A stretch of DNA of 12,353 nt from Clostridia bacterium (GTDB lineage: Bacteria; Bacillota; Clostridia; Christensenellales; Aristaeellaceae). Below, piece by piece: positions 93 to 12,353 of this stretch (position 1 is its first letter; each line of letters begins with the position of its first letter). Under the pieces are notes generated by a model, which was not told the DNA's origin, made no database searches, and saw only the letters and a program-made list of their open reading frames with translations. Made by a program: the position numbers and the translations under genes. The stretch covers positions 1 through 12,353 of the forward strand of contig JAKSQG010000035.1 in assembly GCA_024404275.1 (NCBI GenBank), given 5' to 3'.

Positions 93-2192
93 TTATTTGT
101 TTTCCTTGGTGAGGTTCTCGCGGTAGCCGTCCAGTTCCTTCTCGTTGCCGTAAACAAAGTGACCGGGCAGGATCTCGCACCAGATGGGCTTATCCACGCT
201 GTAGTCATGCTGCGTGGGATCGTACACCAGCAGCTTCTTGTTGCGCTCGAGGTAGGGATTGGGGTTAGGCACAGCGGAAAGCAGCGCCTGCGTATAGGGA
301 TGCAGCGGATGACGGAAGAGTTCTTCCGCTTCAGCCAGCTCCACGATACGACCCTTGTGGATAACGGCGATACGGTCGGAAATGAAGCGCACCACGCTCA
401 GGTCATGAGCAATGAACAGATAGGTCAGGGAGCGCTTCTTTTTCAGCTCGTTGAGCAGGTTCAGCACCTGCGCGCGGATGGACACGTCCAGAGCGGAGAT
501 GGGCTCGTCCGCCACGATAAATTCAGGCTCCATGATCAGGCTGCGGGCGATACCGATGCGCTGACGCTGACCGCCGCTGAACTCATGCGGGAAACGGCTG
601 GAGAACTCCGGCAGCAGACCTACCTCATCCAGCGCGTGGCTCACCTTCGCGGCGCGCTCGGCCTCATCCTTGTACATGTGATGGTTGATGATGCCTTCGG
701 AAACGATGTAGTCAACCTTGGCACGTTCATTCAGTGAAGCCATGGGATCCTGGAAGATCATCTGGCAGCTGCGGATCACCTTCTTATCCAGTTCCTTGCT
801 GATCTTGCCGCTGATGCGCTCGCCCTTGAACAGCACTTCGCCGCCCGTGACGGGGTTGATACGCACAATGGCACGGCCAATGGTGGTTTTACCGGAGCCG
901 GATTCACCCACCAGAGAGAAAGTCTCGCCGCGGTAGATGGTAAAGTTGACATCGTCCACAGCCACAAACTTCTTCTTGCCGCTGCCAAAGCTGACCTGCA
1001 GGTTCTTGACCTCGATCAGGGGCTCACGGTTGGGATCCTCATGCGGATGCTTCAGTTCCTTGACGTTGCCGAAGTTACCGTTCTGCTGCTCAGCCAGACG
1101 CTTGATGGTGTCGGGCTGATCGATCTGCGGAGCACGCGGGTCCATCAGCCAGGTCTTGGCCTGATGGGTGGGCGTCACGTCATAGTTCGGCGGCTCTTCC
1201 AGGAAGTCGATGTTCAGGGCGTTATGGTTGCGGGGCGCAAAGGAATCGCCCTGGATCTTATTGAACAGGTTCGGAGGGGTACCGTCGATGGCGGGCAGCT
1301 TCTCGCCCTTGATGCCCAGCTGCGGCAGCGCGCTGAGCAGCGCCCAGGTGTAGGGATGGCGGGGATCGAAGAAGACTTCGTTCGCCAGACCGGTCTCAAT
1401 GATCTGACCGGCATACATGACCGCCACACGGTCCGCCACATTGGCCACCACACCCAGGACATGGGTGATGTAAATGATGGTCATATGGTTATCGGCCTGC
1501 AGCTTGCGGATCAGGTCAAGGATCTGCGCCTGAATGGTCACGTCCAGAGCAGTGGTGGGCTCGTCGCAGATCAGAATCTGCGGCTTGCAGGCCACGGCGA
1601 TGGCGATAACGGCTCTCTGGCGCATGCCGCCGGAGAACTCATGCGGATACTGCTTATAGCGCTTCTCGGGGAAAGGAATGCCCACCTCGCCCAGCAGACG
1701 GATGGTTTCCTCCTTGGCGGCCTTGCCGTGCAGACCCTGATTGAGTTCCACAGCTTCCTGAATCTGCTTACCGACCGTTTTGAGGGGGTTCAGGCTGGTC
1801 ATGGGGTCCTGCGTCACCATGGCGATGCGCTTGCCGCGGATGCCCTGCCATTCCTTTTCAGTGGTCAGCTTGGTCAGGTCGATACCGTCATACATGATGG
1901 AGCCGTTGGCGATGCGACCATTTTTATCCAGCATGCCCACGAACAATTTGGTAAATACGCTCTTACCGGAACCGGATTCACCTACGATAGCCAGCGTCTC
2001 GCCTTCATAAAGATCCAGAGAGCATCCGCGGATGGCCTTCAGTTTCTGGCCGCGCAGGGTGAATTCAACCTCCACGTCCTTGGCGGAAAGCAGCGGCTCG
2101 CTGGACAGCATCTGACGGCTCAGCTCTTCAAAGCGGGACGCAGTCTTCGCGTTTGAACCGGCTTGTTTGCTTGAAATGATTCTTTCGCTCAT
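93..2192 (-). CDS. Fused tandem ABC ATPase of an Opp/Dpp-type peptide importer (OppD-OppF fusion, GsiA-like architecture)
   Basis: 699-aa ORF with ATG start, TAA stop, and GGAGG 6 nt upstream of the start. Two complete nucleotide-binding domains: Walker A GESGSGKS and GESGSGKT, signatures FSGGMRQR and FSGGQRQR, Walker [13 protein letters not shown] and [13 protein letters not shown]-loops ITH and IAH. Both halves carry the oligopeptide-type C-terminal HPYT motif ([25 protein letters not shown]). Confidence 0.93.
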
Positions 2193-3276: not shown

Positions 3277-4686
3277 TCAGCGGGTACCTCCCTTCTTGGT
3301 CAGGCTGATTCTGGGATCCAGCACGCCCATGAGCAGGTCGCCCAGGAAAGTACCGATGATGCCCATCGCGGCATAGAACAGTACGATCGCCTGTACCAGG
3401 TTGGTATCATAGCGGGAAATGGCCAGCGTCAGCAGGGGGCCCATACCGGGAACGGAGAAGAAGCTTTCCGCCAGCAGGGAGCCGCCCACCGTCAGCAGGA
3501 TGTTGTAGGGCAGGTACTGTGCCAGAGGCAGGAAGGCGTTTTTCATCACGTGACGGAACATGACCTGCGTGGTGGTCAGACCTTTCAGCTGTGCCAGACG
3601 GATGTAATCCTTGTTGAGTTCATCCACCATGTAGCGGCGCATCCACAGCATATAGGAAGCAATGGAGCCCATCGCCAGACACAGGATCGGCGGAATGGAG
3701 GATTCCAGCGGCGTTGCCGCACGGTAGGTCATGGGCAGCTTGAACAGTGCGGCGCAGACATACATGATCAGCGTATAGCTGACCAGATGCGGCACGGCGT
3801 TGACAAAGATGGTGTAACCGGTACCAATCTGATCCAGCAAACCACCCTTGAAGCGTGCCTGCAGGATACCCAGCACAACGCCTACCACCAGGGCCAGTGC
3901 CAGAGAGCACAGACCCAGCACCATGGAGACGGGGAATTTTTCCATGATGACCTTGATGACCGACACACCGTGCTGAATGCGGTAGCTGTCACCCAGGGAG
4001 AAATGCAGCGTATAGTTGAAAGGATTGAGGTGGTTCAGCACATTGGCAAAACCGGAAGTACTGGTGGTAAGTGTCATTCCTTTCACTTTCGCGCCGATCT
4101 CGGTACGGATGTTTTCATTCAGGGTCGCGGTGAACGCTTCGGCAATATCGTTGCCGCAGGCCTTCTTGGCATCCTTGAGCAAAGTGCCCAGCGCCTTATC
4201 GGCGCACTGGCTGTACACAGACTCCAGAATGGCCGCGTCATCCGCGTCCTTTATTGCAAGCGCCGACGCGGTGATGCGTTCCACAACCGTCTGCGTCAGC
4301 ACCTTATCATTCATCTTTGTAATTTCCTTGGCAGCGGCATCCGAATCGGTATAATACTGGTTGATGGTCTTTTCCACCGCGGTGTGAAGTCCATCCACTG
4401 CGCCGGCGGCAAGCTCCACGCTGATGCGCGCCGACTGAGCGCTGTCATAGGTATATTCGATGCGGAACATTTGCGCATAGAAATTTTTCAGCTGAACAAA
4501 GGGATTATCCAGCAGACCGGCAGAGTTCAGCTTATCGATTTTCTGCGAGTCGGTCAGCTTGATCAGTTCATCTTCGGTGAAGAAATAATCGGTGGGCATC
4601 AGTCTCATCAGCAGAAATACCACGCTGACAATAACAAACAGCGTGATAAGAGACTGAAGCATTCTTTTGAGAATGTATTTGATCAT
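3277..4686 (-). CDS. Opp/Dpp-type ABC permease, OppB-like subunit with an enlarged first external loop
   Basis: 469-aa ORF with TGA stop and GAAGGAG 8 nt upstream of ATG. The N-terminus MIKYILKRMLQSLITLFVIVSVVFLLMRLMP is collinear with OppB/DppB. The GDxxxS-type motif (FSLGDSYRI) and the conserved permease core (IRLAQLKGL, LLAESFFSVPGMG) are present. About 150 extra residues (aa 76-228) sit between TM1 and the GD motif. Confidence 0.9.
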   Translation of the reverse strand: MIKYILKRMLQSLITLFVIVSVVFLLMRLMPTDYFFTEDELIKLTDSQKIDKLNSAGLLDNPFVQLKNFYAQMFRIEYTYDSAQSARISVELAAGAVDGLHTAVEKTINQYYTDSDAAAKEITKMNDKVLTQTVVERITASALAIKDADDAAILESVYSQCADKALGTLLKDAKKACGNDIAEAFTATLNENIRTEIGAKVKGMTLTTSTSGFANVLNHLNPFNYTLHFSLGDSYRIQHGVSVIKVIMEKFPVSMVLGLCSLALALVVGVVLGILQARFKGGLLDQIGTGYTIFVNAVPHLVSYTLIMYVCAALFKLPMTYRAATPLESSIPPILCLAMGSIASYMLWMRRYMVDELNKDYIRLAQLKGLTTTQVMFRHVMKNAFLPLAQYLPYNILLTVGGSLLAESFFSVPGMGPLLTLAISRYDTNLVQAIVLFYAAMGIIGTFLGDLLMGVLDPRISLTKKGGTR

Positions 4687-8133: not shown

Positions 8134-8823
8134 TTATTCATTTTCGACTCTTGTCACCGTCAGAATGCCATTTTCAACGCGGAAGCCAACATCCATTCCC
8201 GCGAAGGACAGACCGTAGACAGTCTCCGGTGCATCCTCATACCCGGGGCGCGGGTCACATGCCAGCACGCCTTTCAAAGCAGAACGCTTCTCCGTCGGCA
8301 CTTTGTCAAGAAGTTCCTGCGGAAACACCACCTGCAGGCGATGCGTACGCGTTTCGGCGGTATACCCCTCCGATGCTTCTGGATGGCAGTCCGCCACGGG
8401 AATATACGGCTTGATATCATAGATGGGGGTGCCGTCCAGCAGGTCCGCACCTGATACTGTCAGCACCGGCGCTTCGGGCGCATCCAGGTCGATGCCCGTC
8501 AGCTTCACACAGGAAAGCCCCAGTCCGTTGGGACGATACGGCGCACGGGAGGCAAACACGCCGACCCTTGTATTTCCGCCAAGGCGCGGCGGGCGCACTG
8601 TGGGACGGAACTCGCTGACGCGGGTCTTTGAAAACTCCCAGATGAGCCACAGATGGCTGAAGCCTTCCAGTCCCCGCACCGCTTCCACACGGCGGAATTC
8701 CGGTTCAAATACGATATACGCCTGCAGTTCACTCACCAGACCGCTTTGCCGCGGAATGCCGAACTTTTGCTTGAAATCCGTATGAATGTAAGCAATGGGG
8801 TGCAGAATATGATTCTCACTCAT
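8134..8823 (-). CDS. trmO: tRNA (N6-threonylcarbamoyladenosine37-N6)-methyltransferase TrmO (TsaA/YaeB family)
   Basis: 229 aa counted from the ATG at 8823 ([29 protein letters not shown]...), which is the typical family N-terminus, with GGAG 7 nt upstream. Contains the DGTPIYDIKPYIP motif. TAA stop. The longer track ORF (to 8922) would overlap ispE by 107 nt and adds only an Arg-rich non-homologous leader. Confidence 0.85.
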   Translation of the reverse strand: MSENHILHPIAYIHTDFKQKFGIPRQSGLVSELQAYIVFEPEFRRVEAVRGLEGFSHLWLIWEFSKTRVSEFRPTVRPPRLGGNTRVGVFASRAPYRPNGLGLSCVKLTGIDLDAPEAPVLTVSGADLLDGTPIYDIKPYIPVADCHPEASEGYTAETRTHRLQVVFPQELLDKVPTEKRSALKGVLACDPRPGYEDAPETVYGLSFAGMDVGFRVENGILTVTRVENE

Positions 8824-9661
8824 AACAGGTCTCCGTTCTGAGCACAACAGGCCACTTGCCCTTGAGTGCTTCCGCCGCCCTATCCGCCGCCGCTGCGCTT
8901 TCAAATACGCCATAGGTGACACTGCCGCTGCCCGTCATGCGGGCAAACAACGCTCCCTGTGCCAGCAGCTCTTTCTGTGCCGCCGCAATGGCGGGCACCA
9001 ACCGCATGGCAGCACCCTGCAGTGAGTTGACCGAGCTTTTTTCCAGCAGCTGCATATCCCCCGTGTCGATCGCCTTCAATACACCAAATGTATCTCCATG
9101 AACCGAAGGCATCGCATCCGATTCACGGAATACCGCCGCCGTGCTCAATTCTTCCCTCGGCTGCAAAAGCACCAGCGGATAGGTACGCCTTCCCCCGATG
9201 GGCGTCAGCTTTTCACCGATGCCCTGCACACGGCACAGACCGCCCTGCAGGCAAAAAGGGATATCCGCCCCCAAGGGCAGCGCCAGTTCTTGCAGCGTTT
9301 CAAGCGGCAAATGAAGCTGCCACAACTGATTCAGCATTTTCAATGCCGCCGCCGCATCCGCGCTTCCGCCGCCCATGCCCGCTCCCGCAGGGATACGCTT
9401 GACCAGCGTCATGGCTGCCCCCTGCTGTACGCCCGCAAACGCTTTCAGACAGCGCGCTGCACGCAGCACCAGATTGTTTTCATCCGCCGCCACCGTATCC
9501 GAACCGCTCAGCGTCAGGCTCAGCGTTTCCGCCTCCTACGCAATCAGCGTATCGGACAGTGTCACGCTCTGCATGACCATGTCCAGCAGATGATAGCCGT
9601 CCTATCGGCGTCCGGTCACCTCCAGCGACCAGTTGATTTTGGCTTTCGCTTCAAGCTTCAT
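8816..9661 (-). CDS. ispE: 4-diphosphocytidyl-2-C-methyl-D-erythritol kinase IspE, interrupted by two in-frame TAG codons (recoded or very recent pseudogene)
   Basis: I joined three track fragments that share one frame: [76 protein letters not shown]...[23 protein letters not shown]...[12 protein letters not shown]. The IspE N-terminal AKINxxLxV...DGYH motif, GHMP ATP loop and C-terminal GSG motif are all present. The total is 281 codons plus a TGA stop, which is a normal IspE length. Confidence 0.85.
9536..9538 (-). other. In-frame TAG, ispE codon 42
   Basis: Coding-strand context CTG ATT GCG TAG GAG GCG GAA ACG. It is in the same frame as codon 20 and as the downstream GHMP motifs. Confidence 0.95.
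9602..9604 (-). other. In-frame TAG, ispE codon 20
   Basis: Coding-strand context GGA CGC CGA TAG GAC GGC TAT CAT. It sits inside the conserved G-x-R-x-DGYH block. Confidence 0.95.
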
Positions 9662-11126
9662 TTTCAATGTGCCGCGGCGGCTCCTTTCCCATATCCAAGG
9701 TAAATTCAAACACGCTGCCCCGGTCCGAGGGAAGCAGCCGCAGCTGATGGCCATGCTTGTCCATGATGCATTTGCAGATGGCCAGCCCCAGACCTGTGCC
9801 CTTGCCCACCGTGTGAGCCTTGTCTGCCTTGTAGAAACGGTCAAAAATGTGCGGGGCGTCCTATGGCGCAATGCCCGGTCCGTTATCCGCCACCGTCACA
9901 TGGATCAGCTTGTTTTCCATACGGGTCGCAAGGGTGATTTTTCCGCCTTCCTGCGTATACTTGACCGCATTGCTGAGCAGATTGGTCAGCACCTGATAGA
10001 TCTGTTCCGCATCGGCATGCGCATACATGGGATCGCTGCCGAAGTTCAATTCGACCTCCATGTTTTTTTCATCCAGCTGCGTCATATTGGCAATGATGAC
10101 GCGGCGAATGCTTTCATGGATGTCAAAATCACTCAGTGCCAGCTCGGTAGTACCGTTCTCCATGCGGGAAAGATTCAGCAGGTTGCCCACCAGACGGGAA
10201 AGCCGTTTGGTCTCGTCCAGCACGATCTGCATATACCGTTCCTGCTCCTCACGGTCGATGGTGCCATCCGCCATGCACTGCAGGTAACCCTGAATGCTGG
10301 TCATGGGCGAGCGAAGCTCATGCGATACATTGGCGATAAAATCCTTGCGTGTCTGCTCCAGTTCATCCAACTGCGCAGCCATAATATTAAAGGCATGTGC
10401 CAGTTCCCGGGTCTCCAAACTGCCGCTCTCGGGAACACGGCGGCCGAAACGCCCCTCCGCCATCTCGCGGGAGACCGCCGCCATCTGCTTGAGCGGGCGG
10501 ATCATGGGTCGTGTGATGAGCAGCACGACCAGTGCCGAACAGATCATCACGATCAGGGCCGCAAGCACCACCTGCCAGATAAGGGAATGAAAACCGCTGT
10601 AAACCGTCTGTGCCGCAGTCTGTACAAATACAGCCCCCAGCACCGTGCCATTATCGATCCAGGGCACCGCCACCGTAAACATAGGGCCCGATTCACTCTG
10701 GACGCTGGTCACGATCTCCTGTCCGGTCAGCACCTGACGCAGCGTACTGATCACCAGTTCGCGGTCAAAATCGACCATTTCGGTCTAAAGCATGTCCGGG
10801 GTGATGTACACTGTGGTCTGCCCTGTGCGGTCCACCACCACGGCGTAAGCGGAAAAGTCCTCATAAATACGGTTGACTTTCCATTTGATATATTCCGTTG
10901 TCGTGTTAACATGCAGAACACGTTCTGCCACCAAATTGTTGCGCACACGGCTGGCCATATAGGCCAGGTCATACGCCTGCACCTTCAATTCCTGCATGCG
11001 GGTGGAGATATAGTTGCTGCGCGACGCATACCAGAAGATGCTGACCAGTGACAACACACATACCAGGATCACCGCCAGCACCACGGTCATCAGCCGCACA
11101 TACATGCCGTTCCATCTTTTTTTCAT
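9651..11126 (-). CDS. Membrane sensor histidine kinase (HAMP-HisKA-HATPase_c), interrupted by two in-frame TAG codons
   Basis: One frame runs from ATG 11126 to TGA 9651-9653, giving 491 codons. Elements in order: TM1 ([24 protein letters not shown]), external domain, TM2 ([23 protein letters not shown]), HAMP ([18 protein letters not shown]), H-box [20 protein letters not shown]-box [10 protein letters not shown]1 [25 protein letters not shown]2 [15 protein letters not shown]. The TAGs are at codons 114 and 422. Confidence 0.85.
9861..9863 (-). other. In-frame TAG, histidine kinase codon 422
   Basis: Coding-strand context GGC ATT GCG CCA TAG GAC GCC CCG CAC ATT TTT. It lies between the G1 box (DNGPGI) and the F/G2 boxes of the ATPase domain. 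Confidence 0.95.
10785..10787 (-). other. In-frame TAG, histidine kinase codon 114
   Basis: Coding-strand context CCG GAC ATG CTT TAG ACC GAA ATG GTC. It lies in the predicted external sensor domain between TM1 and TM2. Confidence 0.95.
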
Positions 11127-11815
11127 TTTACTTCAAATTTGTAGCCGACACTCCACACCGTACGAATCTGCCAGCCATATTCCTCACAGCCGATCAGCTT
11201 TTCCCTCAGACGTTTGATGTGCACATCCACCGTGCGGCTATCGCCGAAAAAGTCAAAGCCCCATACCTGCTCCAGCAGCTGCTCACGCGTAAACACACGG
11301 TTCTGATGGGAAGCAAGGAAGTACAATACCTCCAGCTCCTTGGGCGGCATTTCGACGGCTTTTCCCTGATAATATACCTCGTACTTTTCCAGGCTCACCG
11401 TCAGCCCCGGGAAGGAGAGGGTGTTCTTTTCGCCCTCGCTCGGCATCGTACGGCGCAGCACCGCCTTGACGCGGGCAGCCAGCTCCTTGTTGTCAAAGGG
11501 CTTGGTGATATAGTCATCCGCGCCCAGTTCCAAACCCAGTACCTTGTCAAAGGTCTCTCCCTTCGCAGTCAGCATGATAATGGGAATCTGTGAGATCTGA
11601 CGCACCGAACGGCACACCTGCCAGCCGTCCATGCCGGGCATCATGATATCCAGAATCATCATTTGCGGCGGATTCTGGCGGAATGCCTCCAGCGCGGTAT
11701 CACCGCGGCTGAAGGTCTGCACCTCGTAGCCTTCTTTTTTCAGGCACAGTTCCACAAGGCCCGCAATATTGGGGTCATCATCCACTACCATGATGAAGCT
11801 TTTTTCATTCGCCAT
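11123..11815 (-). CDS. OmpR/PhoB-family response regulator
   Basis: 230-aa ORF with GGGAGGG 7 nt upstream of ATG. The receiver domain has VVDDD, MILDIMMPGMDG (phospho-Asp) and LTAKG. The winged-helix DNA-binding C-terminus has TVDVHIKRLREKL and TVWSVGYKF. The TGA stop overlaps the kinase start (ATGA). Confidence 0.92.
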   Translation of the reverse strand: MANEKSFIMVVDDDPNIAGLVELCLKKEGYEVQTFSRGDTALEAFRQNPPQMMILDIMMPGMDGWQVCRSVRQISQIPIIMLTAKGETFDKVLGLELGADDYITKPFDNKELAARVKAVLRRTMPSEGEKNTLSFPGLTVSLEKYEVYYQGKAVEMPPKELEVLYFLASHQNRVFTREQLLEQVWGFDFFGDSRTVDVHIKRLREKLIGCEEYGWQIRTVWSVGYKFEVK

Positions 11816-11834: not shown

Positions 11835-12353
11835 TTATTTCAGGGTCACAATGGTCACGCCGTCCTCGCCCTCGCCGTACTGGCCCAGTCGGAAAGACCT
11901 GACCTGAGGATTCATTTTCAAATGCCGCTGGATGCCGCTGCGCAGCACACCCATGCCCTTTCCGTGCACGATTCCGACCTCGCCGAGACCTGCCAGGATG
12001 GCTTCGTCCAGATACTGGTCCACTTCCATCAGTGCTTCCTCCAGGCTCATGCCGCGCACATCGCATTCCATGTGTACCGTACGGCTTGCGGCGCCCGTGT
12101 GGACCATGACGGCGCTCTTTTTCTTCTTGGCTTCGCTCTTCTTTTCCTGCACGGGCCGCAGCTGGCTCAGGTTGGCTTTAAGTTTCAGTATGCCTGCCTG
12201 CACCTGCACATCGCCGTTGGCGTCGGGCTTGCTGAGCACGGTGCCGCGGGTGTTGAGGTGCAGGATATCCACGGTATCCCCCACGTTCAGCGTCTTGGGT
12301 GCCTGTGTCAGGGTCTGCGTACCCTGAATGCCCTCTGCCACGCTGTCGGCGCT
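11835..12353 (-). CDS. mutS2: Endonuclease MutS2, C-terminal portion with Smr domain (5' end lies outside the window)
   Basis: The frame is open to the window edge and ends in a TAA stop. The KOW-like segment VGDTVDILHLNTRGTVL is followed by the Smr domain: CDVRGMSLEEALMEVDQYLDEAILAGLGEVGIVHGKGMGVLRSGIQRHLKMNPQVRSFRLG...GVTIVTLK. Confidence 0.85.
   Translation of the reverse strand, partial: SADSVAEGIQGTQTLTQAPKTLNVGDTVDILHLNTRGTVLSKPDANGDVQVQAGILKLKANLSQLRPVQEKKSEAKKKKSAVMVHTGAASRTVHMECDVRGMSLEEALMEVDQYLDEAILAGLGEVGIVHGKGMGVLRSGIQRHLKMNPQVRSFRLGQYGEGEDGVTIVTLK

Follow-up and report, generated by a model that had tools for sequence, protein, structure and literature searches.

TAG is very probably translated in this uncultured, gut-type lineage of Clostridia, to judge from comparison of the sequences. 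With only slightly less assurance we suggest that, in the species of the window (the whole stretch of 12,353 nucleotides analysed here) and in at least one sister species, UAG would encode glutamate through a dedicated decoding system and would have no stop function. With rather more reserve, we consider it probable that this is a natural bacterial code with UAG as a glutamate codon, that no cellular prokaryote has previously been known to reassign amber to a standard amino acid, and that the code is seen at an early, context-restricted stage at which TAG is gained and lost between strains. The ispE gene and the histidine kinase gene beside it would thus be ordinary full-length genes in which a few glutamate positions are spelled TAG in place of GAG, with termination by UAA and UGA alone. 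The preliminary description of the window had viewed the TAG codons as an oddity of a single gene and offered no mechanism; the wider comparison, in which evidence from at least eight genes points to glutamate, shows what appears to be a property of the organism's code.

The ispE frame contains, apart from the two TAG codons, zero stops and zero frameshifts in translation (Table 1), and the N-terminal DGYHLL, the GHMP ATP-binding motif (PxGxGxGGGSSxA) and the C-terminal MTGSGS all lie in this one shared frame. Pfam GHMP_kinases_N and GHMP_kinases_C both match the protein, and with Glu placed at both TAG positions it gives a full-length match above the cut-offs of two NCBIfam equivalogs, NF011202 (240.7 bits against a cut-off of 204) and TIGR00154 (210.5 against 138.7). 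The translation and these scores bear out the preliminary description, which had claimed two amber codons (20 and 42) in an otherwise intact gene that retains its motifs and its 8-nt overlap with trmO, whose ATG is at 8823. GenBank lists for this contig a 225-aa IspE (P0002, MCQ2453635.1) that restarts at codon 57 and is without profile positions 1–60. The nearest IspE among about 5.8 billion proteins (P0001) is intact, 89% identical and encoded on the syntenic contig of the sister species; the preliminary description had proposed reading the two TAG columns in such orthologues, and in this one both are GAG. Among the homologues, the codon 42 column is Glu in 73 of 119, and the codon 20 column is variable (Ala 36, Glu 27, Pro 22, Gln 16). 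We note that at codon 20 the TAG and GAG alleles differ at two adjacent bases (CGA TAG in the window, CGG GAG in L002 and L001) and that this two-base change, within 9602-9607, abolishes a Shine-Dalgarno-like GGGAGG run; at the other sites the change is of a single base.

Table 1. Features in the window, with the alleles found at the TAG sites in other assemblies (L001, sister species; L002, L003, L005 and L006, independent assemblies of the window's species; L008 and L009, outgroups). Kinase codons 107 and 415 are the numbers used in the text.
Feature	Position	Strand	Remarks	TAG	GAG or GAA	Without coverage
trmO	8134..8823	-	Pfam TrmO_N and TrmO_C; start overlaps ispE end by 8 nt
ispE CDS	8816..9661	-	281 sense positions including 2 in-frame TAG; ATG at 9661, TGA at 8818-8816
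ispE codon 42	9538-9536	-	TAG in TLIA(TAG)EAETL	window, L002, L005	GAA: L006, outgroup L008; GAG: L001	L003
ispE codon 20	9604-9602	-	TAG in VTGRR(TAG)DGYHLL, directly 5' of DGYH	window, L005	GAG: L002, L006, L001, outgroup L009	L003
Histidine kinase CDS	9651..11126	-	HAMP, HisKA, HATPase_c; 2 in-frame TAGs; overlaps ispE start by 11 nt
Kinase codon 422 (415 in the cross-assembly comparison)	9861..9863	-	TAG in ATP-lid motif; TAG throughout the lineage	window, L002, L005, L006, L001	GAG: outgroup L009; GAA: outgroup L008	L003
Kinase codon 114 (107 in L001)	10785..10787	-	TAG or GAG, depending on the assembly	window, L002, L005	GAG: L001	L006, L003
Response regulator	11123..11815	-	OmpR type; upstream partner of the kinase; without TAG
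MutS2 codon 721	12039..12041	-	GAG in Smr domain; TAG at the same site in strain L002 and sister species L001	L002, L001	GAG: window, L005, L003	L006

The window is in essence one complete MAG contig of 12.35 kb. Frames bounded by TAA and TGA alone were enumerated in it. The window has four in-frame TAGs, in two genes (ispE and the kinase), and its 11 genes stop at TAA (six) or TGA (five). The response regulator is identical in protein sequence in the independent contigs L002 and L003 and in assembly GCA_024500545.1. Further along the window, the opp ATPase (93-2192, minus strand) is one fused protein of 699 aa in which the ABC_tran and oligo_HPY domains each occur twice; GenBank lists for this contig a protein of 320 aa (MCQ2453628.1) that groups with the orthologue of the ATPase in the sister species, and exact-protein look-ups for the 699-aa oppDF product and for trmO returned no record. 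The OppB-like permease (3277-4686, minus strand; 469 aa) has an insertion of about 190 residues between its N-terminal helix domain and the BPD_transp_1 core, which is kept in the sister species. Between trmO and the M15 peptidase, L002 (4940-5689) has an extra HTH_26 gene and a 141-aa ORF, neither of which is in the window and which together form a small strain-specific insertion.

The sister species (GCA_045599485.1, a GTDB species representative) has a syntenic 44-kb contig with nine in-frame TAGs, three in the M42 peptidase, two in MutS2 and one each in the kinase, VanY, YlxQ and TruB; each gene that "ends" in TAG reads on in frame to a protein of normal length. A GTDB scan gave this contig, already known, as its sole match. 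Across 46 genes of the two genomes there are 13 in-frame stops at 12 unique sites in eight genes, and all are TAG, with no TAA or TGA in frame; under equal thirds, the chance of this for 12 unique sites is 2e-6. TAG is thus found in frame in many unrelated conserved genes without other disabling lesions. The same 46 genes terminate with TAA (28) or TGA (18) and never with TAG, a comparison of low power given that only 1 of 32 genes in the relatives (L008, L009, L012 and L013) ends in TAG, so that the probability of 0 in 35 could be as high as 0.33. The outgroup L008 has one true TAG terminator, and the scarcity of such terminators in the relatives is what a codon-capture route would predict. 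Because the contigs carry housekeeping genes (nusA-infB-rbfA-truB, dnaE, RNase Y, murJ, the opp operon and a two-component system), they are bacterial chromosome and not phage, ciliate or other eukaryotic contamination. The TAG sites form a coherent clade, being present in two species and at least five strains, with the genes intact in the syntenic outgroups L008 and L009. A related lineage (L012 1-480, L013 4790-5640, L014 and L015), with a GC content of 0.59–0.60 and a TruB that is 62% identical, has neither TAG terminators nor in-frame TAGs in 17 genes, and TAG may therefore be rare or unassigned there already. An apparent "conserved split" of a HAD hydrolase in that lineage (157-aa calls in several samples) was discarded, as it comes from contig ends and an N gap at one place and involves no frameshift.

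Six independent assemblies from NCBI, ENA and Logan reproduce the TAG sites. Those of the window's own species are Logan SRR27361835 (L002), SRR21151038 (L003) and SRR28408152 (L006) and ENA ERZ27247129 (L005 and L007). Five assemblies, drawn from two species separated by a dS of about 0.4, cover kinase codon 415, and every one of them has TAG there. Of the five sites compared, the remaining four vary between assemblies, and the alternative allele is always GAG or GAA. The sequence around TAG matches that around GAG exactly at kinase codon 107 and at MutS2 codon 721, and hence no local recoding signal accompanies TAG.

The residue to which TAG corresponds is consistently glutamate. GAG would be the precursor of about 18% of random nonsense TAGs, and its occurrence at four of four polymorphic sites has a P of about 1e-3; under random nonsense mutation, CAG-to-TAG transitions should dominate. 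The outgroups L008 (GCA_965338115.1) and L009 (a JGI metagenome) have Glu at kinase 415, ispE 42 (GAA), MutS2 131 (GAA) and ispE 20 (GAG, in L009), and the TruB site is Glu in L013 of the related lineage. The first site of the M42 peptidase, in the motif SGF(TAG)DD, is occupied by Glu in all 120 homologues and all four solved structures, and the MutS2 Smr site is Glu in the structures of B. subtilis MutS2; at the kinase codon 415 site, solved kinase structures have Glu, Lys or Ala. When five columns are scored with a simple likelihood, the posterior for Glu is 0.99998; Ala (1e-5) and Gln (2e-6) come next.

It is this distribution that makes any other residue at TAG very improbable in our view, whether glutamine (as in the TAG-recoded phages), pyrrolysine or a mixture inserted by near-cognate tRNAs. 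Glutamine is, according to the literature, the usual outcome of UAG reassignment elsewhere, and the variability of ispE column 20 would accommodate it; however, no TAG site alternates with CAG or CAA, although CAG matches GAG in frequency and becomes TAG by a transition, and the invariant M42 column, taken with the five-column likelihood, leaves glutamine with the value given above. Pyrrolysine would not fit the conserved Glu positions, the TAG-bearing genes are IspE, the kinase, MutS2, TruB and M42, and no methylamine methyltransferase or pyl genes were seen on the single contigs available. We find it scarcely credible that the region is decaying or redundant and that ispE and the genes beside it are pseudogenes, even though the standard code truncates ispE and GenBank annotates the 225-aa fragment. 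When the window is compared with the sister species, with TAG scored as Glu and dS at about 0.25–0.4, the dN/dS of ispE is 0.145 for the whole gene, 0.064 for codons 1–56, which include both TAGs and lie 5' of any restart, and 0.157 for codons 57–281; that of the kinase is 0.074 overall and 0.026 for the 69 codons 3' of the conserved TAG, and neighbouring genes range from 0.03 to 0.10. As dN/dS is low on both sides of the TAGs, including the segments that the standard code would leave untranslated, these segments are translated and constrained, and decay is refuted. The preliminary description, which had seen in ispE a gene under purifying selection and had proposed the post-TAG estimate, is supported on this point. 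Decay is also at odds with the occurrence of TAG alone, with no frameshift, TAA or TGA, with the conservation of the same TAG in two species and with the presence of housekeeping genes (TruB, MutS2 and IspE) among those affected. We give equally little credence to a sequencing or assembly artefact, in which a methylation- or motif-driven miscall would systematically turn G into T in GAGGA-like motifs. G-to-T is a recognised artefact of oxidative damage and the majority of sites do lie in a (G/T)AG-GA context, but the sites recur across samples and pipelines and track strain relationships, the coding strand of the window has 15 unaltered copies of GAGGA, and strains that share an identical context have different alleles.

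The main rival is leaky suppression, in which release factor 1 would be present and TAG would still end some genes, while a chromosomal or prophage suppressor tRNA would read it efficiently in favourable contexts, the only places where in-frame TAG would be tolerated; it differs from a UAG-to-Glu code in degree and not in kind, and we regard it as unlikely. It draws its support from the rarity and the narrow context of the codon. There are 13 TAGs against 525 GAG and 569 GAA, which is about 1.2% of Glu codons and about 0.08% of all codons. GA, which opens an Asp or Glu codon, follows TAG in 10 of 13 cases and GAG in 15% (P of about 5e-6 on unique sites), and a purine follows in 13 of 13; on the 5' side, A precedes TAG in 6 of 13 and GAG in 8%, and C never precedes TAG (0 of 13). 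In amber suppression in E. coli, the suppressor tRNA competes better with release factor 1 when a purine lies 3' of the codon. Against leaky suppression, the M42 peptidase has three TAGs and ispE two, so that the yields of partial read-through would multiply down, one TAG is kept between species at a dS of about 0.4, and none of 46 genes ends in TAG. The TAG-GA bias is nevertheless unexpected for a fully established sense codon. The preference for GA and for purines suggests that decoding efficiency may depend on the 3' neighbour, and the bias may reflect decoding efficiency, competition from release factor 1 or mutational bias. Given the rarity of TAG and its nearly constant place 5' of GA or a purine, it is probable that decoding is context-sensitive or that the reassignment is evolutionarily young; the bias fits a young or incomplete reassignment to glutamate, possibly with residual competition from release factor 1. 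Avoidance of a Shine-Dalgarno-like GGAGG as the cause of TAG-GA is unsupported, since ispE codon 42 retains AGGAGG and GAA would serve equally. We observe separately that the tetranucleotide CTAG does not occur once in the window or in two further TAG-bearing loci, L010 and L011, for which trinucleotide counts predict 5.0, 8.1 and 2.6 copies respectively, which matches the lack of C before in-frame TAG; a restriction system or a general avoidance of CTAG may be responsible.

For the reading of UAG as glutamate, we suggest that the decoder would be a tRNA with the anticodon CUA charged with glutamate, that release factor 1 would be lost, weakened or dispensable, and that release factor 2 would read UAA and UGA. 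The anticodon is normally among the identity elements that bacterial GluRS recognises, and in many Clostridia Gln-tRNA is produced by a non-discriminating GluRS together with GatCAB. Speculatively, a CUA suppressor derived from tRNA-Gln could be charged by the non-discriminating GluRS and escape amidation, thereby delivering glutamate. ARAGORN found no tRNA(CUA), and no tRNA of any kind, in about 60 kb of DNA from the lineage (the window and each fetched locus), and Rfam at gathering thresholds gave zero matches in the window, L010 and L011. A search of JGI metagenomes and IMG/VR with a pattern for a Glu-type tRNA(CUA), CCCTCTAACGG-N10-11-GGTTCGAATCC, returned five matches, none of them from this lineage; four are phage-type tRNA-like sequences and one is a tRNA fragment, and ARAGORN calls one tRNA among them, with the anticodon CTA. 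We note that near-identical tRNA-like sequences with CTCTAAC (L017 2903-2934, L018 8253-8284, L019 803-875 and L020 2586-2617) sit on IMG/VR viral contigs and one JGI contig, and that only that of L019 is the one recognised by ARAGORN. They are presumably phage amber-suppressor tRNAs, unrelated to the lineage of the window.

The case would work as known systems of stop-codon reassignment do, but none of them shares its domain, its codon and its amino acid together. According to Shulgina and Eddy 2021 (PMC8629427), UGA is the codon concerned in every known bacterial stop reassignment, and a screen of about 2.7 million NCBI assemblies (July 2025), which may well have included both MAGs, reports no reassignment of TAG in bacteria (bioRxiv 10.64898/2026.04.02.715157); our literature search on bacterial UAG reassignment likewise found none. 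The bacterial UGA-to-Trp and UGA-to-Gly codes (tables 4 and 25; Mycoplasmatales, several endosymbionts, Eggerthellaceae MAGs and Absconditabacteria/Gracilibacteria) turn a stop into a sense codon genome-wide, as is proposed here. Such a change is recognised by in-frame stops at conserved housekeeping positions, which the present case shares, and by the disappearance of the codon as a terminator. The expected signature of a stop reassignment is a new tRNA together with loss of the matching release factor (PMC13462651). In contrast to the UGA codes, the codon here is UAG, the expected loss is that of release factor 1 and not 2, the amino acid is glutamate, the genome has 56% G+C, and the contigs show no sign of genome reduction. 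The pairing of codon and amino acid is identical to that of the eukaryotic UAG-to-Glu codes. Peritrich ciliates read UAG and UAA as glutamate (table 30). In Blastocrithidia nonstop, UAG (and UAA) likewise encode glutamate and are read by cognate tRNA-Glu with altered anticodons (PMC12153298). The eukaryotic codes, however, involve eRF1 and a change of UAA together with UAG, whereas here the genes are in bacterial operons and more of them end in UAA (28 of 46) than in any other stop. Gut bacteriophages recoded at TAG (table 15, UAG to Gln, with a suppressor tRNA(CUA)) also show in-frame TAGs in gut-type metagenomes, but their hosts use the standard code and their residue is glutamine, while here it is chromosomal housekeeping genes that carry the codon and the residue is glutamate. 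Pyrrolysine decoding, in some bacteria and archaea, likewise gives UAG an amino-acid meaning in prokaryotes; the codon may there be ambiguous between pyrrolysine and stop, and archaea have been proposed to read all TAG as pyrrolysine (PMC12626013; bioRxiv 10.1101/2024.09.30.615893). It requires pylTSBCD and is tied to methylamine methyltransferases, whereas here TAG stands on Glu columns and interchanges with GAG and GAA. The present case would resemble the engineered E. coli C321.deltaA, from which all TAG was removed and release factor 1 deleted, in terminating at UAA and UGA alone and in having UAG free as a sense codon; that strain is synthetic, and this lineage would be a natural counterpart that is beginning to repopulate TAG as a Glu codon.

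Table 11 mis-annotates these MAGs, with IspE, the kinase, MutS2, TruB and M42 split or truncated, and pathway calls and completeness estimates are affected as a result. If glutamate is indeed the meaning of UAG in this lineage, the pairing would be a new entry in the bacterial code tables and its bearers a natural counterpart of the E. coli engineered to live without release factor 1. It would also pose the mechanistic question of how a tRNA with a CUA anticodon comes to be charged with glutamate when bacterial GluRS normally reads the anticodon. Since a single species is polymorphic at its TAG sites, one could follow directly how a newly captured codon spreads and why it is confined to TAG-GA.
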